Shown: in pieces, positions 6,150 to 60,610 of the stretch
How the letters are laid out: each line of letters opens with the position of its first letter
Numbering within the stretch: the stretch's first letter is position 1
DNA from: Alphaproteobacteria bacterium
GTDB lineage: Bacteria > Pseudomonadota > Alphaproteobacteria > Micavibrionales > Micavibrionaceae
Direction: 5' to 3'
Length of the DNA: 64,000 nt
NCBI GenBank assembly: GCA_050633505.1
Contig: JBOEGQ010000007.1
Span: 13,921-77,920, forward strand
The notes under the pieces: generated by a model
What the model saw: the letters and a program-made list of their open reading frames with translations, nothing else
Database searches by the model: none
What the model was told of the DNA's origin: nothing
Position numbers and translations under genes: made by a program

Positions 6150-7667
6150 ATGGCACAAACATTAGTTTCACGATCTATCGCTATTGCTTGTCTCGCGACA
6201 ACAAGCCTTATCTCGCAAGCTGCATATTCTGCTGATCCCGATGTTTATTTCTACCCCAAGAAAACTTGGACGGTTGAACTAATCGACAACAAGACCAATG
6301 CACAGGAACCAGTTTGCGCCATTAGCAACCAACTCAATAATGGATATATTGTTCAAATTGCAGGAACACAAAACGGTTTTACAAACATTAATATCGACTT
6401 TCGTCAGGATATTTTTCAGAAAAACCGTAAATATGAAGTTCAATACACCCTTCCCGGACAAGATACACAGCTAATCCCGACAAAAGCATTCGGAGAAAGC
6501 CTTTTAGTCGCGGATTTACGCAAGAAAGCTTCTTTTTCCGATCAAATCCCTTCTGCCAGTGTCCTTGACTTACGCATGGGTGGTAATGCGTTTCGTATGT
6601 ATTTAACCGGCCTAAGTGCAGCAATGAAAAACTACGAAAACTGTACGGCAGTCACGCAAGACACACCGGATCTCATGGCAAAAACCGCACCACCAAAAGA
6701 ATCGATCCCAATGCAGCCACAAGAGGTAAGCAGTGATGTCGCCCCCATGCCGCCAATGCCTGAAGCGCTGGCCAAAAATGGTGCAAATGAGAATAACACA
6801 CAGACAGCAAACGATCTTGCAGACCACAAGAAACGCCCAAGCAGAGCCGGAAAGCAGCGCTATACCGACATGATGGCAGAAAGATTAAAAGAAGAAAGCA
6901 AGAAATACCAGCCGGAAACACAGAGCGAACAAAAAACTGCAGAAATTGAAATTATTGAACCGGAAGCATCTGTGTCCTCCATAACACCGTCAGCCCCAAA
7001 ACCGAAACAAGTTGCAAAACAGAGCGCAACACCGACAGAAAAAGCAGAAAAGGTATCCTCTGTAACGCGGGAAACGATCAAATCCCCTAAGGCCGTATAC
7101 ACAATTGAAAAATCGAAAAAGCCACTCGTTGCTGATCTGACCAAGATTAGCAAACAAAAAGAAACGCAAACTGTTGCCTCCTTAGATACAGATAAGATGG
7201 CGCAGAACCTCTCTTCAATAGAACCGGCCAGTGGTCAGCCAAACGAAAACCTGATCCACATGCGTGGGAAAATCTCAGAGTTAGAGAAAAAAGTCTCTGT
7301 CCTGATGGATGAAAACCAAATGCTTGATGAAGAGCTGAAAACTGCGCTAAAGGATGCGAAATCCGAAAAAATGTCGGTATCATCGGACAACTGGAATTTG
7401 GAACGTGCAACAATGCGCTTTAACGAAGCAGAGCGTCAGATCATGCGATTAGGTCGCCAATTACAGACACAACGTGCGCAATGCGACACCGAAAAACAAG
7501 ATCTGGAAACCATGCTTTTTGATCCGAAGCTGACAAATGAGCAACAAATGGCAAAGCTCGCCTCTTTGGAATCCGAACTTGACCAGACAAAATCAGAATC
7601 ATACCGACAACAGCGCCTATATGAAGAACGCATCAAGATTTTAGAAGAACAACTCAATGCGATGTAA
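6150..7667 (+). CDS. secreted hypothetical protein (globular N-domain, Pro/Lys/Glu-rich linker, C-terminal coiled coil)
   Basis: 505 aa. Signal peptide ends AAYSA. The C-terminal roughly 150 aa show heptad-like E/K/L/Q-rich sequence. I recognise no family. Confidence 0.6.
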   Translation: MAQTLVSRSIAIACLATTSLISQAAYSADPDVYFYPKKTWTVELIDNKTNAQEPVCAISNQLNNGYIVQIAGTQNGFTNINIDFRQDIFQKNRKYEVQYTLPGQDTQLIPTKAFGESLLVADLRKKASFSDQIPSASVLDLRMGGNAFRMYLTGLSAAMKNYENCTAVTQDTPDLMAKTAPPKESIPMQPQEVSSDVAPMPPMPEALAKNGANENNTQTANDLADHKKRPSRAGKQRYTDMMAERLKEESKKYQPETQSEQKTAEIEIIEPEASVSSITPSAPKPKQVAKQSATPTEKAEKVSSVTRETIKSPKAVYTIEKSKKPLVADLTKISKQKETQTVASLDTDKMAQNLSSIEPASGQPNENLIHMRGKISELEKKVSVLMDENQMLDEELKTALKDAKSEKMSVSSDNWNLERATMRFNEAERQIMRLGRQLQTQRAQCDTEKQDLETMLFDPKLTNEQQMAKLASLESELDQTKSESYRQQRLYEERIKILEEQLNAM

Positions 7668-27818: not shown

Positions 27819-28264
27819 ACCGTTTAATTATCAGACCATTAAAAGAGGACGACTATGAAAAGTGGCTACCTCTTTGGGATGGCAATAATTTAGGCCAACG
27901 TGACGATGCCGTCACCGCCAGCACTTGGGCACGGCTCTGCAATCCTGATAATCACATGGTGAATGGGCTATGTGCAGAAATGGGTGATGATTTCTGTGGT
28001 ATCACACATTACATCCTGCACAACACCACCGGACAATTAAATCCGGTTTGCTATATGCAAGATGTATATGTCGATCCACCGCACAGAAGACGTGGTATAG
28101 GCCGCCGTCTTGTAAACAGGATCACGGAAATCGGCAAGGAAGAAGAATGGGCGCGACTATACTGGCTTACACAAGAAGGTAATCTTGAAGCAAAAGCCAT
28201 GTACGAGAATTTTGGTATAAAACTGGATTTTACGTTTTACGTCCTGCCCATCACGCAGAGCTAG
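27815..28264 (+). CDS. GNAT family N-acetyltransferase
   Basis: 149 aa with the acetyl-CoA-binding motif VDPPHRRRGIGRRLV and the C-terminal A..MYENFGI. Confidence 0.85.
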   Translation: MNRLIIRPLKEDDYEKWLPLWDGNNLGQRDDAVTASTWARLCNPDNHMVNGLCAEMGDDFCGITHYILHNTTGQLNPVCYMQDVYVDPPHRRRGIGRRLVNRITEIGKEEEWARLYWLTQEGNLEAKAMYENFGIKLDFTFYVLPITQS

Positions 28265-29151
28265 GCAACGCCTAGTCCCTTTAGCCCAACTGTCGGACTT
28301 TGATTGTCCAGAACCTGCGCTTCTTCAGAGGCATCACTGCTCAGATCATCACCACCGGCAAAGTTCCATCCAGCAGCAGCCAATTCATTTGCCTCCGGAT
28401 CATCACCTTCTTGACCTTCGGCAAGCAATGTTTCGCTTTCATTTTCAGGCTGACGCCCTTCAGGCATCTCCACCTCAGGATCTTCACTGCGCCCACCTGC
28501 AGGAGAAGGGTCACCTTGTTCCGGGCCATCTTGCTCAGGCTCGTTCTGCGCAACATCTTGCCCTTCTTTGACTTCCTCTGTAATGCGCGACATCATGCCC
28601 ATAATACCTGAAGGACCATCCATCCCCTTTTCACCAGAAAACAGCATCTGTATGATCGCGATCAGAATCTGTATTCCACTATTATCTGTAATCCCTTGCT
28701 TAAGCTGCTCTTCCGCAGTTTGCCTACTCAAGGCGTCTTTACTACGTGTTTCTGCATCTTCATTTTGTGCAGCCGCCCCTTGCGCAGCCGCAACTGCTGC
28801 AGCGCCAGGATTCACAACACCCTGACTTACCGAAGCATCTGCATTTTGCACAGAATCAATAAGCATTTGATTGATTTCTTTAAACCCTTGCTCTCTGAGC
28901 TGCCCATCTTCAACAACAGTAACCCACGCATCACTTTCCGGCGCGTCTGTAATTTGATCTCCCGTCATAACATCTTGGAATTGTGCCACACTTCCATCCG
29001 GTGACGTTACACGTGCATCACCACTTGCAGCATTAATTTCAACTGTTTTACCATCAATGTTTCCTAGCTCCTGAGCTATACGCTCCATAAACTCCTGACG
29101 CGCTGCTTCCATTTCCGCAGTATTGTTGGCACCTTCTGGCTGGCTCATCAT
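28261..29151 (-). CDS. acidic, low-complexity hypothetical protein
   Basis: 296 aa, with AAGGGGA upstream of the ATGATG start. It is very Asp/Glu/Gln/Ala-rich and has one short hydrophobic stretch (IQILIAIIQMLF). Its stop shares the palindrome CTAG with the GNAT stop. Confidence 0.5.
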   Translation of the reverse strand: MMSQPEGANNTAEMEAARQEFMERIAQELGNIDGKTVEINAASGDARVTSPDGSVAQFQDVMTGDQITDAPESDAWVTVVEDGQLREQGFKEINQMLIDSVQNADASVSQGVVNPGAAAVAAAQGAAAQNEDAETRSKDALSRQTAEEQLKQGITDNSGIQILIAIIQMLFSGEKGMDGPSGIMGMMSRITEEVKEGQDVAQNEPEQDGPEQGDPSPAGGRSEDPEVEMPEGRQPENESETLLAEGQEGDDPEANELAAAGWNFAGGDDLSSDASEEAQVLDNQSPTVGLKGLGVA

Positions 29152-34017: not shown

Positions 34018-34527
34018 ATGTTGCACTCTAGCGTTCAAAACCCTCCCGAAGAGAAAATATCTACGGTAAAAATGCACTTAAAATGGTTTAATGGTACCAA
34101 GGGGTTTGGGTTTCTAGTCCCCGAAGAAGGCAATTACGATGCCTTCTTGCATATTACAACACTCCAACAGGCAGGTCTGCACTCCATCGGCGAAGGAGCA
34201 ATACTGATGTGCAAGGTCTTTGAAGGCGACAAAGGCAGGCAAGTCCGTGAAGTTCTTGAGGTTCTGGACAAAGGCGCGATGAGCACAATCCCAGAAGTAG
34301 ATGAAGAAACCGGCACAATCACGATGGGTGGATTAGTTAAATGGTATAAGCCGGAAAAAGGATTTGGGTTTATTATCCCTGATGACGGTATGAAGGATGT
34401 TTTTATTCATAAAACGTTACTTGATAAGCTTGAACTTGATCAATTAGAAGCAGGTCAACGCGTACGTGTTACACTTAAAATTGTTGATAAAGGGCGTGAA
34501 GCCGTCGATATTCAAGTGATCGAATAG
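34018..34527 (+). CDS. tandem cold-shock-domain protein (two CSDs)
   Basis: Two CSD cores: LKWFNGTKGFGFLVPEEG and VKWYKPEKGFGFIIPDDG. The start could instead be the internal MHLKWFN. Confidence 0.9.
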   Translation: MLHSSVQNPPEEKISTVKMHLKWFNGTKGFGFLVPEEGNYDAFLHITTLQQAGLHSIGEGAILMCKVFEGDKGRQVREVLEVLDKGAMSTIPEVDEETGTITMGGLVKWYKPEKGFGFIIPDDGMKDVFIHKTLLDKLELDQLEAGQRVRVTLKIVDKGREAVDIQVIE

Positions 34528-34654
34528 ACTATAAGCGATTGAAATATAACAAAAATCCTATCCCATCCCCGATACACAAAATATTCATAAAATTTTAAAC
34601 AAAGCCATGCTATTCTATCAAATAGTGTATAAGTGGACTGGGACAGTGTGACAA

Positions 34655-35938
34655 ATGTTTAGTTGTGTAAAATCTATTAGCCGAGACATATATAAGAACG
34701 AAGATGGCTTAACCTTGATGGAAGTATCTCTTGGTTTACTCGTGGTTAGTATACTCGCACTCCCCCTATTACAGGCTTATAACGTCGAAATTCGTCAACG
34801 AACAATTTCAAACACACAAGGGGCCCTCGCCCAAATCGAAGATTCCATGAACCATTACTTCCTAAGTGGTAATGGTGAATACCCTTGCCCGGCAAGTGTT
34901 AGCCTTGGTGAGGATGATCCCGGATTTGGAGAAGAAGGTGACTGTACCTTGGCAAATATCAGGCTGTGTACAGATCCATTATGGTCAAGCACAGAAGGCA
35001 TTTGCAAAACAGAAGACGCACCAACCGCGGTCATTATCGGCTCAGTTCCTTTTGCCGAATTGAAAATGCAACAAGAACAAACACTGGATTACTGGGGCAA
35101 CAAAATCCTTTATGCTGTTAGCTTCCCACAAACAAATCAGGCAGTATATACAATCGGTGGCGGGACAATCACGGTAAATACTGTTGATGACCCCGTTGAT
35201 GTGGCAAATGGCAGTGCAGACGGGATACCTGATGCGCTTACCAACCCCTATGATATTTTTATGTTTTCAACTGGCGCAACCGGATTGGGCGGATATTCAA
35301 GAAATGGAGAAAGTTTAGGTGATTGCGCAGACCCGGCAGACAGCTATGACCATGAAAATTGCGACTTTGATAATGTTTTCTTTTATGACGTAAATCCGGG
35401 TAATAAAAGTGCCGCCGCATTTGCAGAGCAAGTCGGCCCACAGTTCTACGATGATATGACACGTGGACAACAATCTGTTCCGGAATCAACATGGTTTCAA
35501 CACCCTGATAATGCGGCATATACAGACGAAGATTTTGCAATGACCTTTGCCACACGTATTGGCATAGGCACACATAGACCGGGTGAGGACACAACACCAG
35601 ACGAAATGCTGCATGTTGCCGGAAATATCCGTGTAGAAACAGGCACTGGAGGTAACGGTCGCCTAAAAACAGATTCCATCTGCGATGAAGATGAAGATTG
35701 TTTTGATCCGTCTTATATAACCGAAGAAGTAGATGAGATGCAATGCGATCCTGATGATGACCTATACGGAGAACAAGTCATTAGAACCATAGGCGATAAT
35801 CAAGTTCGTTGCAATGTCACCGATGGCGCAAGTGGTGGTTCAGAATTACAAATTGACACATCTGTGGTAAATGGAAGCTGTAATTTAGGAGAAAGAGCCG
35901 TGGGCTTTAATCCGAGTGGAGGAATACTATGTCTATAA
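34655..35938 (+). CDS. giant type IV pilin-like protein, paralogue 1 (prepilin-type N-terminus)
   Basis: 427 aa. Leader MFSCVKSISRDIYKNEDG is followed by LTLMEVSLGLLVVSILALPLL (G/xTLxE plus a hydrophobic helix). It shares YPCPA, VPF..L, DYWG..ILYAV, FMFSTG and ENCD blocks with the next two ORFs. Confidence 0.8.
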   Translation: MFSCVKSISRDIYKNEDGLTLMEVSLGLLVVSILALPLLQAYNVEIRQRTISNTQGALAQIEDSMNHYFLSGNGEYPCPASVSLGEDDPGFGEEGDCTLANIRLCTDPLWSSTEGICKTEDAPTAVIIGSVPFAELKMQQEQTLDYWGNKILYAVSFPQTNQAVYTIGGGTITVNTVDDPVDVANGSADGIPDALTNPYDIFMFSTGATGLGGYSRNGESLGDCADPADSYDHENCDFDNVFFYDVNPGNKSAAAFAEQVGPQFYDDMTRGQQSVPESTWFQHPDNAAYTDEDFAMTFATRIGIGTHRPGEDTTPDEMLHVAGNIRVETGTGGNGRLKTDSICDEDEDCFDPSYITEEVDEMQCDPDDDLYGEQVIRTIGDNQVRCNVTDGASGGSELQIDTSVVNGSCNLGERAVGFNPSGGILCL

Positions 35939-38376
35939 CAGTTAAAAACAACCAGTCCGGTTTTACATTGGTTGAAGCTGCCCTTGCACTTGCAATTGTC
36001 GGGATTTTAGCCGCAGCCGTGATATCCCTTTATCATCAATATCGTGTTGAAAAAGACTGGGATAACACAGAAGTCCATATTGAACTTGCCCTCAATGAAA
36101 TCGGTAACTTCCGTTCTGTATTTGGTCGCTACCCCTGCCCGGCTCCCCGTACGGCAGTTCCCGGGGATCTTGATTACGGTCTGGAAGATTGTACAGTTGG
36201 CGCTTCTGGTGCGTGCGCAAATGGAATTTGTACATATAACAGCATCATTGGTGGCGAAACCATCACACTTGGGACTCTCCCCTTTAAGACCCTAAACTTA
36301 CAGGAATCAGAGGCACAAGATGGATATCTTGGTCGACTAACATATGCCGTGACCAGCAGCCTGACATCAAATACAACATTCGATATGACCGGAGGCGGCA
36401 TCGGGATTGTTGGCAAAGACGGCACATCCATTATTACACCAGAAAATCGCGGTCATTTTATTGTCATTTCCCACGGCCCAAATCATGTCGGTGCATATAC
36501 AAAATCTGGCATAGAAGCCAGACCATGTGCAGACGGCTCACCAACAGAACAAGAAAATTGTGATGGTAATGCAACATTCGTATCCGGTGATACCGAAACA
36601 ACCCATGATGACCGCGTTGCGTTCTTTAGTTCGGTTCGTGCAACAGAATGGCAAACAACAGAAGACGACCGTACAGATATACACCTCAAAAGCTTTACCA
36701 ACAGCGTAGCCGTTGGCGCAAATGTTACAGATGACCTTGACGGTGCAGACGAAATAACAGTGCGCAATATCGCTGGTATTCCAGACTCAGGAACTGTAAA
36801 ATCAAACAACGATTTTCAGGTTGATACCCTTTGTGAAGAAGATGCAAACAGTGATGTCGACTGCTTCCAACCAAGATTGCTTTCTGGAAGCTTAGCGATT
36901 ATTCCGTCAGGTGATCCTGTATATAGCAGCATCGACGGCTCCGATGACTTATACGAAGAAGGCGGCGATGGCGGCCTGAGTTGCTTAACCTCTGGGGGTA
37001 ATGCACAATTCATGGTCGGGATCGGCAATAAAACCAAACGATGTGTCAATGAGATATTCCTGTCATGTCCTAATGGCGGATTTATCAACTCAATCAGCGC
37101 AGACGGCGATGTTGTCTGTGATAACCCGCCTGAGCCAGAATGTCCGGATGAAGATGTTGTGACCTATTGTGGTACAAATGAACGCCTTGAGAATTCAGAT
37201 GGATCCGGCTCCACCCCTAGCGGTGCTTATTTCTCCGTTTACTCAGGTACATGTAACATGGCACCAGTATATAATGGGGCATATTTTGAGACTGCTGTCG
37301 CTGGCTTAGATGAAGACGGTATTAGAGCACTGGTCGACACGATAAATGCTGAAGGTACAACCGCAGAAGCCTGTGGCCCAACACAGGGACACTCACTTGT
37401 GCGCGATTCATACCAATGTGAATCAGGGATTTGGGATCACCATCGCACACACGAGATTCGCTGGCGTAGTACATTTAGCGGTTTGAGCGTAAATGCCAGT
37501 GGTAGCTGGAACGCAGAAAGCTCTGACTGTTCCTGTACAGAAAGATACGATGTTGTTGAAGACGACTGCCCGAACGGTCAGGCCGGAACACAATATATTA
37601 TCCGCAAATATCGTTGCCCGTATACGAGTAGCAATTGGACAACAGTTCACAACGACTATCAAAGCTGTGGATGTGACCCAAGTCCTATTCCAAATGAGAT
37701 AAGCTGTAACAATTATTACGATGAGGTTAATGATACAACCGGAACATCCGGTCTAGAAGGTACAGTCTACCGAACATATGACGTGACATGTGTTGATGAT
37801 GTTGCCGTCACAAATGCAACCCCGACCACTGTTGATACCGACGAATGTGCCTGTAGCACCGAGCCGGATGATATAAGCCGCGTTCAGTGCGATACAGGCT
37901 TGACGAATAGCTGGACATGGTCAGGTGGTACAGAAACAGGTGTCGCAGAACTGGACGTCTACGAATGGGTCTGCCCACCTACAACGCCTGGTGAATTACC
38001 TGATCCAGGGGATCACGAGGAAACACCATCACAAAGCTATACGCATGCTTGCACCTGTGATCACGACTTAGATGAGGAAGTCAAAGTCGATTGCCCCTCT
38101 GATCAGGATGGTCAACTAATCTATCTAAAAGAGTGGGATTGCGGCCTCGACGACTGGGAAGATGAAAGTGAATGGGAGCTAATCGGCGGAGCATGCAATA
38201 GTTGTTCCTGGCAGGCATCATCCGGCGGATCAACTTTAGAGAAATACGCCTATGGTGAACCAGTTGGTGGAAAATGTGACTGTGGAACACCGCCTGTTGA
38301 ATACTGCCATGACTATCATAGTGAAGACTTCTATGAAGTATGGACAAGTTGTCAGTGCGCAGTCCAAATTGATTAA
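35929..38376 (+). CDS. giant type IV pilin-like protein, paralogue 2, with a Cys-rich repeat C-terminus
   Basis: 815 aa. GGAGGA precedes the ATG, which overlaps the previous ORF by 10 nt. Leader MSITVKNNQSG is followed by FTLVEAALALAIVGIL. I count 40 Cys by hand. Confidence 0.85.
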   Translation: MSITVKNNQSGFTLVEAALALAIVGILAAAVISLYHQYRVEKDWDNTEVHIELALNEIGNFRSVFGRYPCPAPRTAVPGDLDYGLEDCTVGASGACANGICTYNSIIGGETITLGTLPFKTLNLQESEAQDGYLGRLTYAVTSSLTSNTTFDMTGGGIGIVGKDGTSIITPENRGHFIVISHGPNHVGAYTKSGIEARPCADGSPTEQENCDGNATFVSGDTETTHDDRVAFFSSVRATEWQTTEDDRTDIHLKSFTNSVAVGANVTDDLDGADEITVRNIAGIPDSGTVKSNNDFQVDTLCEEDANSDVDCFQPRLLSGSLAIIPSGDPVYSSIDGSDDLYEEGGDGGLSCLTSGGNAQFMVGIGNKTKRCVNEIFLSCPNGGFINSISADGDVVCDNPPEPECPDEDVVTYCGTNERLENSDGSGSTPSGAYFSVYSGTCNMAPVYNGAYFETAVAGLDEDGIRALVDTINAEGTTAEACGPTQGHSLVRDSYQCESGIWDHHRTHEIRWRSTFSGLSVNASGSWNAESSDCSCTERYDVVEDDCPNGQAGTQYIIRKYRCPYTSSNWTTVHNDYQSCGCDPSPIPNEISCNNYYDEVNDTTGTSGLEGTVYRTYDVTCVDDVAVTNATPTTVDTDECACSTEPDDISRVQCDTGLTNSWTWSGGTETGVAELDVYEWVCPPTTPGELPDPGDHEETPSQSYTHACTCDHDLDEEVKVDCPSDQDGQLIYLKEWDCGLDDWEDESEWELIGGACNSCSWQASSGGSTLEKYAYGEPVGGKCDCGTPPVEYCHDYHSEDFYEVWTSCQCAVQID

Positions 38377-38391
38377 GAGGGTTATAAGCCA

Positions 38392-39696
38392 ATGCAATTC
38401 TTTAGAACACGATCACAAAACGGAGAGAAAGGTTTCACCCTACTTGAACTTGCACTTGTGATGTTTATTTCCGCAGGTACTATTTTAATGTTCACACGGT
38501 TTATCAAGCTTTATACAACTAACGCCCAATATGAAACCACCGTTGATAATCTACGCCTTGCTCAAGATGCGTTAGATGAGTATTACGGATTGGAAGGAGT
38601 CTACCCCTGCCCGGCAGACCCGACCCTGGGCCCGGGTGACGAAGATTATGGCGTAGCACAATGTCGCGCAACGCCGGATGACACAGCAGGGGCAAATAAT
38701 TGCGATGACACTCCGGACGGCTTGATCTGTACCAACCAATTCAGCCGAGACGGCGATGGCGATGGCGATAACGACATTGTTATGCAAGGCGTTCTACCAT
38801 TCAGAACGTTAGGAGACCGCGTTGTGGACACGCCATTTACAGAGGCATACAAAAAAGATGGCTACGGCGCTCTATTATCTTATGCTGTGACTGAACATAT
38901 GACCAACAGGAACGAAAGCAGCATCACCGATCCGGCCAACCCGCATACGGGTGCAATTCGGATTATTGATGAGAACCGGGTCAATTTAACCGATCCAGAG
39001 GATTCTGCACATATGGTGGTGTTCTCTCATGGTGATAATAGTCGAGGTGGCTATACACCAACCGGAGATCAAATTGATAACTGTATGGTTACACTGATAG
39101 AAGGTGATCCACCGGAAGATGCCGCGCCCGGCCCGTTTACCGCAGGTATGGAAGTCGAAACCGAAAACTGTGATAGCAACGATGCGATTTTTGCAAAGGG
39201 CATTAGATCCCTTGCTGATGGAGACACGTATAATGATGATCTTCTATTTTACAATGTTGCTGGTTTTGTTCCAATCTGGAGACGCGCATTGAATAGCCCG
39301 GATGGAGAATCCTATATATTCAACACAAATACCGGCCATGTCGGCGTCGGAACAGATACCCCCGGAGAAAGATTACACGTCATCGGTGATATGAGTGCAG
39401 AACAGAGCGCAATTGCTGACAATTACTGTGATGGCAATACAGGTGATTGCCTTGACCCGGACTTTATAGCAAGCTCTGGGCACCAATGTGGCCCAGGAGA
39501 AGTTGCATACGGCATTCAGGAGAATCGACTAGCCTGCCGTCCTGTGGAGTGGGTGCCACCAAATAAAAGCTGCCCTGCTACAGGTGGCGGTGAACAAAGA
39601 TATATTAAAGCCATTTCCAACTTAGGTAATTTAAGATGCTGTACCTATGATGAAGCAGATTGTTGCACCTTTGATGGCGGGACATGCACGCCGTAA
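38392..39696 (+). CDS. giant type IV pilin-like protein, paralogue 3
   Basis: 434 aa. Leader MQFFRTRSQNGEKG is followed by FTLLELALVMFISAG. It has the same conserved blocks, a DGDGDGDND run, and 16 Cys by hand count. Confidence 0.85.
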   Translation: MQFFRTRSQNGEKGFTLLELALVMFISAGTILMFTRFIKLYTTNAQYETTVDNLRLAQDALDEYYGLEGVYPCPADPTLGPGDEDYGVAQCRATPDDTAGANNCDDTPDGLICTNQFSRDGDGDGDNDIVMQGVLPFRTLGDRVVDTPFTEAYKKDGYGALLSYAVTEHMTNRNESSITDPANPHTGAIRIIDENRVNLTDPEDSAHMVVFSHGDNSRGGYTPTGDQIDNCMVTLIEGDPPEDAAPGPFTAGMEVETENCDSNDAIFAKGIRSLADGDTYNDDLLFYNVAGFVPIWRRALNSPDGESYIFNTNTGHVGVGTDTPGERLHVIGDMSAEQSAIADNYCDGNTGDCLDPDFIASSGHQCGPGEVAYGIQENRLACRPVEWVPPNKSCPATGGGEQRYIKAISNLGNLRCCTYDEADCCTFDGGTCTP

Positions 39697-39720: not shown

Positions 39721-39750
39721 AAAAAGCGCGCTTGGATTTGCGCGCTTTTC
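39721..39750. terminator. bidirectional Rho-independent terminator between the pilin-like operon and gcrA
   Basis: AAAAGCGCGC-8 nt-GCGCGCTTTT, a perfect 10-bp stem with A/T runs on both sides, between convergent genes. Confidence 0.8.
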
Positions 39751-52442: not shown

Positions 52443-53240
52443 CTATTCATTACTAACCGTAAGGAATCTCTTACACTCTTCTTCAGGAAAGTAATCCTGC
52501 AACCCCATTGAAGATGCTGTGCCACGGTATTTTTTAAGTTGCCTATCAGAAATTTTTGCGCGATACAAAAAATCTCTCATCATACCGGGTAAATCATAAG
52601 CCCCTGTAGAAGCCCATTGAGTTTTTCTATCATGGTTACGATCCAACTCTTTTTTCTCACATGAGTCCTGCCCTGCCAAATATTGTCTACAGGCCTCCAA
52701 CGTATACTCCATCTTCTTAAGGACTTTATAGAAAGACTTTGCATTCGTTATAGATAGCTTATCTTTTCGTGCATTCAAATACTGACTAATTTCTAACACT
52801 CTTTCCGCGCTCAGGTCTTGCCCTTTATCCCATGCATTCCTCATCTCATACGAAATACCTTGATATCTACTAATACCTAGTCGACAGGAAATTTCATAAA
52901 CCCCCTTTAAAGTTTCTTGATAATTTCCTGCAATTTTAGCCTGCCTTCTATTTGATACTGCCCCATTCAAAGCCCTATCTGGAACAACATCATCTACAGT
53001 GCTTCCGTCTACCTTTGTTCTGTCAAAAACCCCTGAAATTCTAACATTCAAATTCGCTGCATGATTTCGTGCACACTCCGGCCCCAATGGCTTCAATTCC
53101 GTCCCATATTGAGTTCTTTCAAATCCAATATAGGCAGTATCACTACTCAATGGTTGAGGACAATTCGAACACTTTGTGTTTGGGTTCACGTAATCGCGAT
53201 TCAAGAAACCGTCTACTTTAGTTCTTAATTTTTCACCCAC
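52443..53240 (-). CDS. hypothetical protein (orphan)
   Basis: 265 aa, with a GTG start preceded by AAGGAGAG. Cys pairs (CSNCP...GPEC) suggest a small zinc-ribbon-like N-terminus. I recognise no family. Confidence 0.6.
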   Translation of the reverse strand: MGEKLRTKVDGFLNRDYVNPNTKCSNCPQPLSSDTAYIGFERTQYGTELKPLGPECARNHAANLNVRISGVFDRTKVDGSTVDDVVPDRALNGAVSNRRQAKIAGNYQETLKGVYEISCRLGISRYQGISYEMRNAWDKGQDLSAERVLEISQYLNARKDKLSITNAKSFYKVLKKMEYTLEACRQYLAGQDSCEKKELDRNHDRKTQWASTGAYDLPGMMRDFLYRAKISDRQLKKYRGTASSMGLQDYFPEEECKRFLTVSNE

Positions 53241-54751: not shown

Positions 54752-55492
54752 TTAAAAGTCAGGATCTAACGCTGGTATCAACCTTTGATCATGTTTTGTG
54801 ATGCTATAACGTAAGTTTTGATCTTTGGCCACAACGTCCCATGATGGTGATGTTTTTAGCATGGTTAAAGCTGTTTCAACCTCGGCATCTTTAAACGTGT
54901 TCACAAAAAAGTTTGCTACAGCATCACCATCTGTCCTTATATTCTCCATCAAGTCAGGTAAGAAATTATCTTGTTCCAAATACGTTAGTATTTTTAGCCG
55001 ATCTTCCGCTGCCGCATTTTTCATCATAGATGATAACGACCATATAGAACTACTGGCTCCTGTAATTATTGTAGTCTTTGCTTCTGGATTAGTTGTTATA
55101 AAATCAACGACATCAAAGGCCTCTTTCGGAGAGATATTTCCAGCCACGCTATCAAATGCGTGAACAGCCAATTCACTATGCCATAACTTTCCAGAGTTAA
55201 ACCTTTCTGTTAACCTCTCACGCGCTTCCAGCATGATGGGATCTTGCAAGATTTCTTTAAATTTACCTAATAGGAAACCTGGTTGTTGGCATGCCTTGTA
55301 ATTTTCCATACATTTTTCACTAACATCTGAAGTCGAAAATCCCGATTCCTTACTATGAATTTCCGACTCTACCTTACGCAAATCATCAGTAATACTTTTT
55401 AATCCTTCAACTTTAGCATATATTTCTTCACCGCTATTAGTGTACCAACCGCCATGCCTTACATTCTTCAATAAGCCCTTAATATCGACCAT
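54752..55492 (-). CDS. hypothetical protein (orphan, predicted helical)
   Basis: 246-aa ORF with its own terminator, no signal peptide and no family I recognise. Confidence 0.6.
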   Translation of the reverse strand: MVDIKGLLKNVRHGGWYTNSGEEIYAKVEGLKSITDDLRKVESEIHSKESGFSTSDVSEKCMENYKACQQPGFLLGKFKEILQDPIMLEARERLTERFNSGKLWHSELAVHAFDSVAGNISPKEAFDVVDFITTNPEAKTTIITGASSSIWSLSSMMKNAAAEDRLKILTYLEQDNFLPDLMENIRTDGDAVANFFVNTFKDAEVETALTMLKTSPSWDVVAKDQNLRYSITKHDQRLIPALDPDF

Positions 55493-55920: not shown

Positions 55921-56298
55921 ATGCTTGCCATGAAAAACACCAAAAGGTCGAAACGATCCCCGCTCACCCTGCGTCTGAGTGATGACGAATGGGCGTTATT
56001 GGATCTGTATGCCGGAGGCACACCGCTTAGTGCCTATGTCCGCACAGCCCTGTTTGGTGAAAAAGCGACCAAACGCCGTAAATCCAAACGTCCGGCCAAG
56101 GACTATCAGCCCCTCATTCAGGCCATGGGTACCTTTGCTCGCTCTCAAGCCCCCAACAACCTGAACCAGATTGCCAAGGCCATTCATACGGGTACGCTTA
56201 GTCTCACCCCAGAAATCGAGATCTCCTTGGTTGAAGCCTGTGCCGACATCAGTGAGATACGCCGATTGCTCATAACAACTCTAAGAACGGAGGCATAG
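55921..56298 (+). CDS. MobC-family mobilization (relaxosome accessory) protein
   Basis: LTLRLSDDEWALLDLYA (RHH-like) and the hallmark NLNQIAKAIH motif. AAGGAG lies upstream. Confidence 0.8.
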   Translation: MLAMKNTKRSKRSPLTLRLSDDEWALLDLYAGGTPLSAYVRTALFGEKATKRRKSKRPAKDYQPLIQAMGTFARSQAPNNLNQIAKAIHTGTLSLTPEIEISLVEACADISEIRRLLITTLRTEA

Positions 56299-56514
56299 AT
56301 GGCTTGGGGTTGGTGCGATGCTTTCTACAAATTCGGCTTTCAGGATGGTGAGGGTGAGATACATACCCCACATGTTGCCGCTGTCCTAACGGAGGCAGGA
56401 TACTTTGTGCAATACACCAAATTGGGCGCGCACAATGTTGTGATCTTCATGCTGCGTAAAGGGGGAGAATGCTATCTCCCTACTCGTTCTGCCTATGAAA
56501 ATCCACGTGACTAA
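56299..56514 (+). CDS. hypothetical protein in the position normally held by a relaxase
   Basis: 71-aa ORF whose ATG abuts the MobC stop (TAGATG). It shows no relaxase motifs. Confidence 0.4.
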   Translation: MAWGWCDAFYKFGFQDGEGEIHTPHVAAVLTEAGYFVQYTKLGAHNVVIFMLRKGGECYLPTRSAYENPRD

Positions 56515-56797
56515 CATGCTTTAACTCTTCAGCAAGGATGCGCTCTAAAGACATTTTTTGATCATTTCCATTTTCATCAATATATTCATCTCCTTGAAAA
56601 GCATCTTTTTCAATTAATATCTCTGCTTTTCCAGCTTGAGGATCATAAGATGTTCTGGAACCATCACCACCAGGTATATCGTCAACTATTTTTATGTCGA
56701 CGTTTCCTCCATCGTCATAAATATCTCCAATTAAATCATCAAAATCTGGCGATGAATTTGCTAGATTAAGAAATGCATTTCTAAGTGAGTCGTCCAT
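56480..56797 (-). CDS. acidic hypothetical protein
   Basis: 105 aa from MDDSLRN, with AAGGAG 6 nt upstream, directly downstream of the DUF2927-like gene. Confidence 0.5.
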   Translation of the reverse strand: MDDSLRNAFLNLANSSPDFDDLIGDIYDDGGNVDIKIVDDIPGGDGSRTSYDPQAGKAEILIEKDAFQGDEYIDENGNDQKMSLERILAEELKHVSHVDFHRQNE

Positions 56798-56820
56798 TGA
56801 TATCTCCTTGACAGATCGTA

Positions 56821-57981
56821 CTATTTTTCCAAACAACTTGTGTTTCTAATCAAACTTAATGAAGCCTCATATTTGTCCATCCCCGGATTTATAGAAGGGC
56901 AATACAATATGGAGAGAATCTTCAAGTCAAACTCACTCGGAACTAATAGCGGAGAATCATATAGAGAAAACTTTTCTTCTAATTCCAAAAGCCATTTCTC
57001 ACGCATACTTTCTCGATGAACGCCCCCATCCAAAACAGTCTCTGCCGAAACAACATCGAATTTATTGTTCCAGTTAGATAAAATTCCATTATTATTTTTA
57101 GTAACCTCTGGCACCCCCAACGCACGCGCAAGACACTCTGAAAGAAATGCTTTAGACCAGTTTTCTGGAACGACAGATGGTTTCAAGTAACAGGTGGCAG
57201 CCTGTATTTCGTTGTTTTCATTAGGTATGAAGAAACCTTCTACTTGAGACCTCTGGCGCGGCGTAAACCTAACTGCCGAACTGTAAGCCTGCTCATAGTC
57301 GGTTTCATCAGCATAACTTCCACCCCTTTGGTTCTTAAAAGCATTTAGTATGTGAGATTCCGCATCCAATACTATAAATACATTCGCAGCGCTTCGATCA
57401 GGAAATTGTTCTGATACATAGGATATATTCAGATCAGTAGCCCTAGAGTAAATAGGAATAATACCTTTTAAATGATTGACTAGGTAATCAAATTTTTCCT
57501 CGTCGAAGCTATTACCTAAAACCTTGAATGTTATCTTAACAGGCTCTTCCCATTTATTAATGGTGTTGTGCTTAGGGGTGGAAATTATTTTTTCATTCTT
57601 GCGTTTCAGCAAGAGCATTGCCCTTGTTCCACTATTAACTCCTTCATACCAAAGAAAATCAGAAAAAGAAGCATCTAAAAATATATCAGCCATATGACTT
57701 GGGAGGTATCTCTTACCATCCAGAACTAAAGCTTTTGGCATAGTAAATGGCTTTTCAGGCATGTACGGCAAGGTACTCACGTTTTCATGCATAATCCACT
57801 TTGCACCCTCTTCAATCTGTCGCTTTTCTTCTTCGCTTTGATTTTTTTGATCAGGTGCTTTGGTTTTTTCCTGCCTAAGTACCTCCATCATTTCCGATAA
57901 GTTTATTTCGTTTTTAGCCTCAGCTAACAAAGACAAGCTTAAACAGGCTACAACAACAACTACAAAGATTATTCTCTTCAC
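56821..57981 (-). CDS. secreted DUF2927-like protein (tentative)
   Basis: 386 aa with a signal peptide. The blocks WEEPVKITFKV, C..(K)P......FLSECLARALGVPEV and DLKILSILYCPSINPGMDKYEA resemble DUF2927 blocks (..EE..Q.LGL.ND; LL..LY.P.L.PGM), from memory. Confidence 0.55.
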   Translation of the reverse strand: MKRIIFVVVVVACLSLSLLAEAKNEINLSEMMEVLRQEKTKAPDQKNQSEEEKRQIEEGAKWIMHENVSTLPYMPEKPFTMPKALVLDGKRYLPSHMADIFLDASFSDFLWYEGVNSGTRAMLLLKRKNEKIISTPKHNTINKWEEPVKITFKVLGNSFDEEKFDYLVNHLKGIIPIYSRATDLNISYVSEQFPDRSAANVFIVLDAESHILNAFKNQRGGSYADETDYEQAYSSAVRFTPRQRSQVEGFFIPNENNEIQAATCYLKPSVVPENWSKAFLSECLARALGVPEVTKNNNGILSNWNNKFDVVSAETVLDGGVHRESMREKWLLELEEKFSLYDSPLLVPSEFDLKILSILYCPSINPGMDKYEASLSLIRNTSCLEK

Positions 57982-58188
57982 TTTAATGCCGCTCTTCTTT
58001 CATAATGTGTGATCGCTAACTTAATGATTGATAGTACGCACTTCATTTACCATTCAAAATCCATAGCATGACTCACCCCACCACACAATCTTAAGTACAC
58101 AATTAAATCAGGTTTTTCTTATCTTCTTCCCCCGTAACTTTCATCTAAAAGCTGAGATAACCCATCCACAGCTAATGAATACGGGGAT

Positions 58189-58497
58189 ATGCCAAGGACA
58201 CACACCCAGAAAAACCCGTATTTCAAAAATTCCAGACTCACTATTGAAGAAACTGAACTGCTGGTGTTGATGTATTTTAGGCAAACTAAGAATTTTGACT
58301 ATGGAAGAAAGTTAATACATGGTTCATATTTTGCCGCGTTGAAACGTGGTGAGTACAAAGTTAAAAATGTGGTTGGTGGTGCAGGCGATACCGTACCCAC
58401 GCCTCTGTTATACCCAGAGCAAAAGGAAGCCATGGAGAACGGAATGAGTTTTGTTTCCACTCTGGGATTGGCCTTTAGTCCAATTTGTTCTCAATAG
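58189..58497 (+). CDS. hypothetical protein
   Basis: 102-aa ORF in the island. I recognise no family and the coding evidence is weak. Confidence 0.3.
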   Translation: MPRTHTQKNPYFKNSRLTIEETELLVLMYFRQTKNFDYGRKLIHGSYFAALKRGEYKVKNVVGGAGDTVPTPLLYPEQKEAMENGMSFVSTLGLAFSPICSQ

Positions 58498-58522
58498 GCT
58501 TAAATGTGAATGATTCAATTCT

Positions 58523-58858
58523 CTATGATTGTTCAGGAGCAGAGTCTACCGTTGATTGGTTATCTTCCTGATCCCAGCCATTGTTGCGCCCAATGGCTTC
58601 AACGATATCGGTATAGTAATTTGTCTTGGAGAAAGCCTCGTAGAATCGGCGTTCATCACCGCCATTATTAGGATGATCTAATAACTCGTTCGCCAACTGC
58701 CGCCTTGTTATTCCACGTTCAATGCATTCTGAATCATATTCATCAATGACTTTAGCGTCTGCGCCGTGCAGGGTCACATCGCGGAAAGTTCCTTTCCTTT
58801 GATAGCCTGACGGAGCCTTTCCATCTGGCGTTGACTTATATTGAAATTCTTCCTTCAT
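58523..58858 (-). CDS. hypothetical protein
   Basis: 111 aa from MKEEFQYKST; the track ORF extends to 58948. I recognise no family. Confidence 0.45.
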   Translation of the reverse strand: MKEEFQYKSTPDGKAPSGYQRKGTFRDVTLHGADAKVIDEYDSECIERGITRRQLANELLDHPNNGGDERRFYEAFSKTNYYTDIVEAIGRNNGWDQEDNQSTVDSAPEQS

Positions 58859-59086
58859 CCATGACCTGCCTTTCACGATCATGGATAGCAGGAAAGAGTT
58901 AAGAAATTCAATAAAAAACGAGTGAGAGGAATTTATTCCTTGACTCATTTTTCAGAAAACAATATCCATAAAGAGTAAAGGCCATTCGTGCATCTAACGC
59001 ACGGGCGCTTTACCCCTTCTCTGTTTCCCGCCGAATGGATTGGCGGTTGATTAAATACTTCTACCTTTAACAAAACCAAAACGCCC

Positions 59087-60556
59087 ATGTTTTTCATCGG
59101 GCGCGTTTGGTCATGGAAAGATATTGTTATGACGTTAGATATTGAAGAATACATTCCCTACCTTGAAGGCCTTGCCATGTCGCGTGCAAATAAGGAACAA
59201 ATGATCCGCATCGTGTGGGGATTCATGGAAAGCCATATTGATCAGGCCTTTGGTTTGCATCCAGTTCAACAGGCACAAAATTGTAAAAGAAAAAGCATTC
59301 ACATCCGCTCTGCTATCTCTGAGGCAGGCGGCATTCTGAAAAGCCCCTCCATTGAGTTTGGAGAAGACTCTGACAGTCGGCTGGTGGAGCATTTACTCGC
59401 CTCAGTAGCCGCACACCAGCGGGAGAAGAATGCCGAGCAGGTTAAAAACCGCATGAGGGCGCGTGTTCTAAACGGCTATTGCGTGACTGCACCAGTGATT
59501 GGCTATCGCTATGAGAAGGTTGAGGGGCATGGCAAATTACTGGTGCGGGATGAGCCAGTGGCCTCCATCATTCAGGAGGTGTTGGAAGGGTTTGCGCATG
59601 GGCGCTTTGGTTCTCAGGCGGAGGTGAAACGGTTTTTAGAAGGCCATGCGGCCTATCCGAAAGGCAGCGATGGCGAAGTGCATTGGCAGCGCGTAACAGA
59701 GATGTTCAGGCGCGTGGTTTATGCGGGTCGCCTGTCTATGCCCGACTGGGGCATTCACAATCACCCAGCGCAACATGAAGCGCTGGTGAGTTATGAGACT
59801 TGGCAGAAAATTCAAGGCAGACTGAATAAGCCCAAGAGAGCGCCCATACGCAAAGATATCAATGCCGACTTCCCGTTACGGGGGTTTGTGACGTGTGGCT
59901 GTTGCGGCCATCCGATGACCTCGTGCTGGTCAAAGGGGAGTAAGGCAAGTTACGCCTATTACCTTTGTTTCAAGAAAGGCTGTGAGCACTATAAGAAATC
60001 TATTCCACGGGATAAGTTGGAAGGTGAATTTGCTGCGCTTATCTCCGACTTTACCCCGCCGAGGCAATTATTCGTGATGGCGGTGGAAATGCTGCACAAG
60101 CTATGGGATGACCGTTCGGACAAGCGCAAAGAGGAAGAGGCACATCTTGAGGTGGCTTTAGATAAGACGGAGCGACAGATCGGGCAATTGCTGGATCGGA
60201 TTGTGGACGCGCAGAACGCGAGTGTGGTTACGGCCTATGAAACGCGCATTCAAGCCTTGGAAGATGAGAAGATCGTTTTGCGGGAAAAAATCGAGAAATG
60301 CGGGTGTGCGTTGCCTGACTTTAGCGGGACTTTTCGAACAGCTTTAAAATTCCTCGCAAACCCGCATGAATTATAGTCTTCGGATGATCTTACCGATAAG
60401 CGTAAGGCGTTGAAGATGATGTTTACGGAAGTTTTACCGTATGAGCGAAACGGAGGTTTTCGAACACCCCCAATCGCCCAGCCTATAAGGCTTTTGAGCG
60501 ACTTGCTGGGGGGTAAGGATGTTATGGTGGAGGGGGCAGGATTCGAACCTGCGTAG
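59087..60556 (+). pseudogene. large serine recombinase, degenerate (catalytic N-terminus missing, in-frame TAG at 60374-60376)
   Basis: The recombinase domain and zinc-ribbon are present (APVIGYRYEK..., RGFVTCGCCGHPMTSCWSKG...YYLCFKKGC) along with a coiled coil. No YxRxSxxxQ nucleophile motif precedes them. After the TAG the same frame continues 59 more codons (SSDDLTDKRKALKMMFTEVLPYERNGGFRTP...VMVEGAGFEPA) to a stop at 60554-60556, inside the tRNA. Confidence 0.8.
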
Positions 60557-60610
60557 ACTAACGTCGTCGGAGTTACAATCCGATGCCTTTAACCACTCGA
60601 CCACCCCTCC
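60525..60610 (-). tRNA. tRNA-Tyr (anticodon GTA), CCA encoded
   Basis: The minus strand reads GGAGGGGTGGTCGAGTGGTTAAAGGCATCGGATTGTAACTCCGACGACGTTAGTCTACGCAGGTTCGAATCCTGCCCCCTCCACCA. It has a 7-bp acceptor stem, an anticodon stem TCGGA/TCCGA with loop TTGTAAC, a long variable arm and a GGTTCGAATCC T-loop, and it aligns well with E. coli tRNA-Tyr. Confidence 0.95.

Follow-up and report, generated by a model that had tools for sequence, protein, structure and literature searches.

The window analysed here, a 64,000-nucleotide stretch of contig JBOEGQ010000007.1 from an alphaproteobacterium of the family Micavibrionaceae (assembly GCA_050633505.1), carries an operon of three genes whose products, P1, P2 and P3, are large, cysteine-rich paralogues with pilin-like N-termini. 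With moderate confidence, we interpret this trio as a matched set of minor pilins serving a type IVa pilus (T4aP) in a Micavibrio-like predator, with the assembly machinery encoded elsewhere. The operon represents a variant of minor or modular type IV pilins that is conserved within, and specific to, its lineage, and is neither an orphan curiosity nor a new kind of system. Judged by sequence, the N-termini of the trio are of the bona fide type IVa class; the trio is co-retained across its clade; and it adjoins pilus machinery, T4aP and Tad, in separate sub-lineages. The three genes lie on the same strand:

34655-35938, plus strand: P1, open reading frame (ORF) of 427 amino acids (aa), pilin-like paralogue
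35929-38376, plus strand: P2, ORF of 815 aa, the large paralogue
38392-39696, plus strand: P3, ORF of 434 aa, paralogue

P1 and P2 overlap by 10 nt, and a gap of 15 nt separates P2 from P3. Each protein starts with a class III (prepilin) signal, consisting of a leader (aa 1-18 in P1, 1-11 in P2 and 1-14 in P3) and the cleavage context G/LTLME, G/FTLVE or G/FTLLE, respectively, where the slash marks the predicted cut. Glu at +5 (Glu5) is present in all three, and a YPCPA motif at aa 76-80, 68-72 and 71-75 begins at +58, +57 and +57 from the cleavage site. The mature proteins contain 12, 40 and 16 cysteines and are strongly acidic, with Asp plus Glu against Lys plus Arg at 67/17, 134/37 and 68/24. 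Pairwise BLASTP supports paralogy (P1/P3, 4e-16; P1/P2, 1e-21; P2/P3, 9e-28), and the three-way alignment holds 58 invariant columns, including G-1, T+2, L+3, E+5 and YPCPA as well as the blocks PF..L, YAV, S.G....G.Y and ENCD. An earlier note on this DNA, made from the sequence alone, had given the same ORF sizes, overlap and gap, and its account of leaders, Glu5, YPCPA spacing, even cysteine counts, acidity and paralogy was likewise reproduced.

All three proteins share one anatomy: the leader, an alpha1 helix ending at YPCPA, a head of ~230-250 aa, a neck of ~30-40 aa and a Cys-rich C-terminus. This last part opens in each subunit with a C...C(F/L)xPxxI disulfide loop and is ~80 aa long in P1 and P3, and ~500 aa long in P2. 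P3 also contains an acidic loop, FSRDGDGDGDNDIV (aa 116-129, window positions 38737-38778; orthologue consensus RDxDxxGxxD), which by its sequence resembles Ca2+-binding loops such as those of GspG and PilY1.

Using profile searches, we found that the pilin-class signal varies in strength among the three proteins. The earlier note had named the N_methyl models as a check, and P2 passes both, with 29.7 bits against Pfam PF07963 (gathering score 21.2 bits) and 18.9 bits against TIGR02532 (cut-off 16.3 bits), while P3 (17.9 and 14.4 bits) and P1 (12.8 and 13.0 bits) fall below. Profiles built from P3 and P2 orthologues match the entire alpha1 of solved type IVa pilins, with family-profile E values of 1.4e-10 for Geopilin, 8e-7 for Myxococcus xanthus PilA and 1.6e-6 for Neisseria PilE, followed by GspG and TcpA. 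P1 orthologues are variable at +1 (L/F/M/V/I), and in ~10 of 33 Asp replaces Glu at +5.

Past the N-terminus, searches of Pfam and NCBIfam for known domains gave sub-threshold noise only (Cys_rich_VLP, G2F). The family-specific NCBIfam models for gspI, gspH, gspG, ComGD/E/F and PpdA-D-type proteins align with only the first 20-60 residues, at 11-18 bits against cut-offs of 44-158. The resemblance to the DPWG block of GspG that the earlier note had seen is without backing from hidden Markov models (HMMs), as the NCBIfam gspG model aligns with residues 10-69 of P2 only. Pfam TadE (PF07811) has zero matches in P1, P2 or P3 even at E <= 1, and neither S74 nor Peptidase_G2 has a Pfam match in any of them.

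Conservation and pilus machinery in relatives

We examined the distribution of the family at several depths. The search with P3 returned 110 clusters at 90% identity, with YPCP present in 110 of 110, its spacing from the cleavage Gly fixed in nearly all, and the class III signal likewise preserved in nearly every homologue. When 1.84 billion representatives were searched exhaustively with a profile, at least ~140 full-length, single-stretch matches of 370-520 aa (E <1e-92) resulted, counted as clusters at 50% identity. Even numbers of mature cysteines are found in 23/23 P1, 31/32 P2 and 31/32 P3 orthologues (85/87), and full-length P2 orthologues span 803-892 aa. Scanning one genome per GTDB species gave 57 loci, nearly all from Micavibrio sp. 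or uncultured alphaproteobacterial metagenome-assembled genomes; one belongs to the cultured M. aeruginosavorus HCB189, which has a shorter, divergent cluster. The earlier note had left the distribution of homologues to a survey. Gene maps of 61 loci (L001-L061, the window itself excluded) show the P1-P2-P3 order with sizes of ~430/830/430 aa in most of them, almost only in Micavibrio-type bacteria.

The trio occurs in four kinds of neighbourhood. The window and ~19 of the 61 loci share the arrangement CSD-trio-GcrA-Era, with no machinery nearby, and many other loci have unique neighbourhoods. In L043, L045, L049, L050, L062/L063 and probably L041, family genes adjoin the pilin gene or genes of a T4aP cluster: in L045, L049 and L062 the pilin gene precedes them on the same strand, and in L043 and L050 the pilin genes are convergent with them. 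L062 encodes on one strand PilB (MshEN), PilC, PilD, two PilT-like ATPases, a secretin, an AraC regulator and a 274-aa pilin, right after which comes a 401-aa family member (HMM E value 4.6e-106). PilD of L045, L049 and L062 carries both A24 domains (A24_N_bact and Peptidase_A24), and L045 PilD as query has 1281 homologues, of which none among the 120 listed could be linked to the window's contig or to the syntenic 2.41-Mb genome. The 'orphan' status given to the operon in the earlier note is a local accident of gene order rather than a trait of the system itself.

In eight species (L032, L035, L036, L039, L040, L042, L047 and L056) the trio instead lies next to a Tad cluster. A pil_N-domain gene and a TPR (TadD-like) gene follow 65-83 nt after the trio, which is convergent with tadC, tadB, cpaF, cpaE, cpaD, cpaC and cpaB. 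Canonical tadZABCDEFG loci have tadE/F/G at that place. L027 also lies near a Tad cluster (9/61 loci in all), and Tad adjacency is absent from the window, from M. aeruginosavorus and from most loci.

In a rough neighbour-joining (NJ) tree, every context group is present within each of the P1, P2 and P3 clades, indicating that the triplication is older than the sampled radiation and that all three copies were retained. Each context group forms one related set in this tree, so the adjacencies count as few events. We also considered the tree as a pointer to the ancestral location; it favours neither context, since the T4aP-adjacent group and the Tad-adjacent group each branch off deep.

The clade's T4aP-type cluster (L062 1363-19296; L045 555-9824; GMV_1530-1544 in M. 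aeruginosavorus) is unusual in content. It also holds proteins of 534, 217 and 204 aa without a Pfam match, an ABC_tran ATPase and a 551-aa TPR protein, then an ABC2_membrane-like 273-aa protein, a 262-aa protein without a Pfam match, the AraC regulator and the ~270-aa pilin; PilM/N/O/P have no Pfam matches in the cluster in L062 and L045.

M. aeruginosavorus ARL-13 (CP002382.1) offers a cultured host for the comparison. Its trio is GMV_742-744 (391, 692 and 377 aa), located between a dihydroorotate dehydrogenase gene and pgsA. P1 pairs with GMV_742 (BLASTP, 27% identity, E 3e-32), P2 with GMV_743 (E 1e-60, 90% coverage) and P3 with GMV_744 (AEP09078.1 / G2KQE2; 35% identity, E 3e-64). These genes have not gone wholly unnoticed before: a 2011 paper counted the M. 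aeruginosavorus orthologues among 'three operons encoding eight prepilin-type proteins', giving them no other label than prepilin-type. Synteny with the other genomes was considered and rejected here, because the recurrent upstream neighbour (c30) is ferrochelatase and not the dihydroorotate dehydrogenase that flanks GMV_742.

The earlier note had allowed for a host without a prepilin peptidase or an assembly platform; the cultured M. aeruginosavorus has genes for a PilD-type peptidase, PilB, PilC and PilT as well as for a secretin. The published expression table of ARL-13 places a secretin, two PilT-like ATPases, an 825-nt type IV leader peptidase gene, a GspF-domain protein (PilC) and a T2/T4 ATPase (PilB) beside the 247-aa prepilin GMV_1530, the putative major pilin. 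This T4aP-type cluster is ~800 kb from the trio; in ARL-13, too, the trio is no less an 'orphan' than in the window. A separate Tad cluster encodes Flp and its own small peptidase, and according to the 2011 paper flp belongs to the genes with the highest expression in attack phase. In the expression table, the trio has values of 0.2-0.5 in attack phase and of 1-3 in attachment phase, against 34.5 and 196.5 for GMV_1530. The trio transcript therefore lies ~100-fold under that of the putative major pilin, a ratio typical of minor pilins.

Several loci carry additional family members. P2 is duplicated in tandem in L018 (4830-10010) and L047 (5488-9950), and L019 (1287-11224) holds two complete tandem trios; these duplications hint at alternative tip sets. 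A second, shorter cluster of 3-4 family members (300-450 aa, with YPCPA) is found in L060 (8632-14222), L055 (7994-12386) and L058 (9761-13212). In M. aeruginosavorus it corresponds to GMV_904/903/902, expressed in attack phase, and is followed by GMV_901, a 725-aa Sec-signal protein with no Pfam match at the usual place of PilY1. The P2 extension was tried as a fused PilY1-like protein and rejected, as BLASTP against GMV_901 gave E 0.047 over 33 residues, which amounts to no similarity. In L002 (11313-16678; GCA_020638175.1), the trio is followed downstream by genes for a sigma-54-dependent response regulator, two more response regulators, a hybrid histidine kinase and a flagellin. These neighbours may be a regulatory context of the trio, as PilR-like regulators control pilins in other bacteria.

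Predicted structures and a fibre-type motif

P2 and P3 were modelled as monomers with AlphaFold2 (AF2). The P3 model has a predicted local distance difference test score (pLDDT) of 89 and a predicted template-modelling score (pTM) of 0.73, with alpha1 at residues 17-68 (pLDDT 96-98) and strands after it. P2 reaches a mean pLDDT of 78.6 and a pTM of 0.34, with alpha1 at residues 14-65, so that the predicted helix is 52 residues long in both proteins, in line with the ~53 residues of the extended helix of type IV pilins. The individual domains of P2 are well predicted, and their mutual arrangement is undefined. Residues 400-815 are modelled as beta-rich (pLDDT 85-92) and are separated from the head by a low-confidence linker; in the three-way alignment, neither P1 nor P3 has anything that corresponds to ~430 of these C-terminal residues. 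In the model, P2 thus appears to combine a complete pilin module with a separately folding extra module, as modular pilins do.

The extra module contains a repeated cysteine pattern:

37528-38274, plus strand: tandem Cys modules of P2, four units of C-x-C-x10/11-C-x15-27-C (aa 534-579, 580-639, 640-707 and 708-782)

A fifth, shorter unit extends to aa 815. The modules align with one another (z = 4.6 and 5.9 for two module pairs), their cysteines are invariant in 47 orthologues, and they are predicted at pLDDT 85-92. Foldseek finds no PDB match for them. More broadly, the Foldseek searches of both models against PDB, and of P3 also against BFVD, returned nothing at E <= 0.001. The weak pilin matches were EpsG (E 3.2) and PAK pilin (E 4.6), and the weak matches were enriched in Bdellovibrio fibres and phage IMC/tail-fibre proteins, none significant singly. 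The trio family is thus sizeable and uncharacterised, with AlphaFold models that are confident yet without a solved structural match.

One likely structural detail comes from the comparison with ARL-13. C73, the cysteine of YPCPA in P3, and C91 are both absent from GMV_744; their joint loss suggests, at the level of sequence, a C73-C91 disulfide in P3 that would tie the end of alpha1 to the next loop.

Each subunit also carries one copy of a motif known from trimeric fibres, canonical in P3, interrupted by an insertion in P1 and degenerate in P2:

35555-35629, plus strand: fibre-type motif of P1 with insertion, RIGIGTHRPGEDTTPDEMLHVAGNI (aa 301-325), aligning with the P3 motif
36679-36777, plus strand: degenerate fibre motif of P2, IHLKSFTNSVAVGANVTDDLDGADEITVRNIAG (aa 251-283), aligning with the P1 and P3 motifs
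39313-39390, plus strand: canonical capping-loop motif of P3, YIFNTNTGHVGVGTDTPGERLHVIGD (aa 308-333), identified by profile match and published motif

P3 carries VGVGTDTPGERL, which fits V-G-G/N-pi-x-x-P-x-x-x-L. Caulton et al. 2024 (PMC10769870) define this motif as the capping loop of intertwined trimeric beta-helices, found in MAT fibres, in phage fibres of the S74 type and in MyRF. Positions 307-345 of the P3 profile (IYNTNxGNVGVGTxxPxxxLHVxGD) match Bdellovibrio MAT fibres, namely Bd2133 (7.4e-10, three repeats), Bd3182 (3.5e-4), Bd2439 (6e-4) and Bd1334 (2.6e-3). The consensus of P1 orthologues at this site is riGig......t..P.....V.G.ir. The motif region is of lowest confidence in both monomer models, which fits a fold needing partner chains; in P2 it lies inside the sole long low-confidence stretch (aa 221-300, pLDDT <50).

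The same ~30-aa unit recurs 36-66 times in giant fibre-like proteins. Six of these (P0290, P0297, P0318, P0342, P0346 and P0417) have 3,523-7,453 aa and 36-66 copies of GNVGIGTxxPxxxLxV, and P0342 ends in a weak Peptidase_G2 IMC domain. Such giant repeat proteins inflate the number of profile matches at E <= 1e-30, which is 3,647.

MAT and S74 fibres resemble the trio in the capping-loop motif, which in those fibres marks intertwined trimers, and MAT proteins also sit on the surface of a predator. However, the trio has a single motif copy in each protein rather than a multi-turn beta-helix, and no S74/IMC domain. It has a pilin N-terminus in place of the Sec signal and the conserved MAT anchor domain (~130 aa), and any trimer would be a heterotrimer of paralogues.

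A proposed tip complex and other readings

We infer that the trio acts at the end of a type IVa pilus in the following way. Each protein would enter the inner membrane via its hydrophobic N-terminus and be cut after the conserved Gly by a PilD-type prepilin peptidase encoded elsewhere. P1, P2 and P3 would then pair through their alpha1 helices into a 1:1:1 complex, which would prime pilus assembly and remain at the pilus tip. Exposed there would be the disulfide-locked acidic heads and the ~500-residue Cys-module extension of P2, which may touch and adhere to prey. The fibre-type motif, present once in every subunit, may join the chains of all three in a short trimeric neck. A bolder version of this last step, which we put forward tentatively and consider rather unlikely, has each protein giving one chain to a tail-fibre-like, beta-helical heterotrimeric neck on a retractile type IV pilus, with the CxC modules of P2 at its end seizing prey. 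If true, the neck would exemplify a trimeric-fibre motif that operates within a heterotrimer and is attached to pilins, and the pilus of an epibiotic predator would bear a phage-tail-fibre-style spike of pilin origin.

Known tip systems provide partial precedents. Like the trio, the minor pilins of T4aP and of type II secretion systems (T2SS) (FimU/PilV/W/X with PilY1; GspH/I/J/K; for example in M. xanthus, PMC7541494) are encoded together, often away from the machinery, have an N_methyl-type class III signal, are expressed below the major pilin and are proposed to form an alpha1-held tip complex. The trio differs from them in having no HMM or fold match past alpha1, in consisting of three mutual paralogues and not four unrelated folds, in subunits 2-5 times larger with 12-40 cysteines, in Glu5 in all three, and in an operon that lacks a PilY1 gene. 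Tips made of three minor-pilin subunits have been documented in the case of GspIJK-type complexes, Streptococcus sanguinis PilA/B/C and Myxococcus KilL/M/N. In S. sanguinis, PilB with its vWA module and PilC with its lectin module form a heterotrimeric adhesive tip with PilA (PMC8179133, PMC9934059). Like P2, PilB and PilC are pilin modules with an extra module grafted to the C-terminus. In the trio, however, the added modules match no known domain family, one enlarged head (~230-250 aa) is common to all three subunits, and the host is a diderm predator.

The Myxococcus KilL/KilM/KilN tips come from dispersed three-gene clusters, with several sets per genome, and prey killing depends on them (Herrou et al. 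2025, PMC12075869); Micavibrio is not named in that paper. They share with the trio a predatory host, dispersed three-gene clusters, many predicted disulfides and one large subunit whose distal domain lacks a PDB homologue, and a heterotrimer on the pilus end contacting prey is proposed for them. However, the Kil tips are homologous to TadE/F/G, belong to an Flp pilus and occur in Myxococcota only, whereas the trio is alphaproteobacterial, of the N_methyl/T4a class without a TadE signature, mutually paralogous, and bears YPCPA and fibre motifs. On our best reading, the trio would be analogous to, and not homologous with, the Kil tips, which would be its closest functional precedent.

Of the two options offered by the earlier note, tip or minor subunits for a machinery encoded elsewhere fit best, given the T4a-class N-terminus, the machinery of the cultured relative and the T4aP adjacency in some relatives; no support was found for a distinct class of pilin-anchored fibres. 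Several observations nevertheless weigh against a T4aP tip complex. P1 and P3 score under the N_methyl thresholds of Pfam and NCBIfam, and HMM searches link the heads to no known minor pilin or pseudopilin, with best Foldseek pilin matches at E >3. GspK-type tip subunits lack Glu5, whereas all three window proteins keep it; this GspK/PilX-type feature is also missing from P1 orthologues, which carry Glu or Asp at +5. A PilY1-like gene is absent from the operon, and no T4P, T2SS or Tad component was found by Pfam among the ~48 larger ORFs of the window, in agreement with the earlier note. Conservation is uniform along the proteins, P2 among them, without a hypervariable tip or any sign of a diversifying adhesin. 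Finally, it is a Tad/Cpa cluster that adjoins the trio in the eight species described above, where tadE/F/G usually lie, with a further one near L027.

The earlier note had set the Tad pilus aside, yet the Tad link stays a rival. Under it, the trio would be the tip of a Tad (Flp) pilus and a functional analogue of TadE/F/G and KilL/M/N, processed by the Tad peptidase or promiscuously by PilD. Besides the adjacency at the tadE/F/G place, the dispersed, three-gene, disulfide-rich heterotrimeric Tad tips of a predator (Herrou et al. 2025, PMC12075869) and the rank of Flp among the top attack-phase transcripts of M. aeruginosavorus speak for this reading, which we nonetheless regard as unlikely. 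The Tad-adjacent loci form one related tree group, and their adjacency may thus go back to one event only. In M. aeruginosavorus, a tadE-like gene with two neighbours (GMV_527-529) is already present in the tad locus; all three are expressed with flp, whereas the trio is encoded elsewhere and shows hardly any expression. We favour T4aP over Tad because of this locus, because the G/FTLxE N-termini are of the N_methyl type, match T4a pilins best and lack a TadE signature even at E <= 1, because T4aP-adjacent loci have family genes straight behind the major pilin gene, and because the low transcript relative to the 247-aa pilin suits minor pilins.

Other readings change the destination of the proteins rather than the pilus. 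The trio could be a set of pseudopilins of a T2SS-like piston that exports predator hydrolases and stays in the periplasm, as suggested by the NCBI name 'type II secretion system protein', by the T2SS without annotated GspC, G, H and K reported by Wang et al., who suggest pilin-like proteins as substitutes, and by the pilin-then-family order in L045, L049 and L062, which recalls gspG-H-I-J-K. We consider this very improbable. The NCBI name is a generic label for any protein with an N_methyl motif, the NCBIfam GspG/H/I matches span only the N-terminal 20-60 residues far under the cut-offs, 430-815 aa with 12-40 cysteines is far from pseudopilin dimensions, and two features of the associated cluster, its pair of PilT-type retraction ATPases and its MshEN-type PilB, are typical of T4aP. 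It is also improbable that the pilin-like N-terminus, cleaved or not, is a mere membrane anchor of periplasmic or envelope-anchored disulfide-rich proteins. The sub-threshold scores of P1 and P3, the variable +1 and frequent Asp at +5 of P1 orthologues, the heads without structural match to pilins and the position of the operon among housekeeping genes in most genomes would agree with an anchor. However, Gly-1, Glu5 and the +57/58 spacing of YPCPA are exact in hundreds of sequences, which a role as anchor alone would hardly account for; the alpha1 profile aligns with assembled pilins over the whole length of the profile, and adjacency to two pilus systems recurs. Lastly, P1, P2 and P3 might be repeating subunits of a separate thick heteropolymeric fibre, to which we give very little credence. 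Glu5 is kept in all three as in polymerising subunits, and heteropolymeric T4P and large major pilins exist; yet the trio is transcribed at very low levels in M. aeruginosavorus, steric reasons make it unlikely that a filament is lined by an 815-aa subunit with a 500-aa extension, and the clade has a separate, highly expressed pilin of 247-278 aa.

The trio is a candidate, across its lineage, for the step in which Micavibrio and many uncultured relatives recognise and hold prey, and it has an orthologue in a cultured host. If it is indeed a tip complex, modular and disulfide-rich surface devices that form trimers would be in use among predators of three unrelated lineages, namely Myxococcota (Kil tips), Bdellovibrionota (MAT fibres) and Alphaproteobacteria, with T4a-class pilins as the building blocks in the alphaproteobacterial case.

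Surroundings of the operon in the window

Pfam scans of the ~48 larger ORFs of the window identified housekeeping and metabolic genes only. The trio is flanked by a CSD protein gene upstream and by genes for GcrA, Era, RNase III and LepB downstream, in keeping with the cold-shock and gcrA/era neighbours and the bidirectional terminator that the earlier note had described:

39721-39750, not assigned to a strand: hairpin common to the convergent P3 and gcrA genes, with a stem of 10-11 bp, 6 G-C pairs and a T-rich tail on both strands

The hairpin is terminator-like on both strands. Upstream of P1, the promoter scan gave one weak plus-strand match (9/12) at 34484-34512, within the end of the CSD gene, and by eye we saw no sigma-54 or sigma-28 consensus in 34528-34654.

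Elsewhere in the window, the ORFs at 6150-7667 (505 aa), 28261-29151 (296 aa), 52443-53240 (265 aa) and 54752-55492 (246 aa) have no Pfam match. The region 55921-60610 contains a NikA/MobC-like ORF (55921-56298), a DUF2927 protein gene and a serine recombinase with a zinc ribbon (59087-60376), which adjoins the sole tRNA gene of the window, tRNA-Tyr on the minus strand at 60525-60610. This region may be an integrated mobile element.

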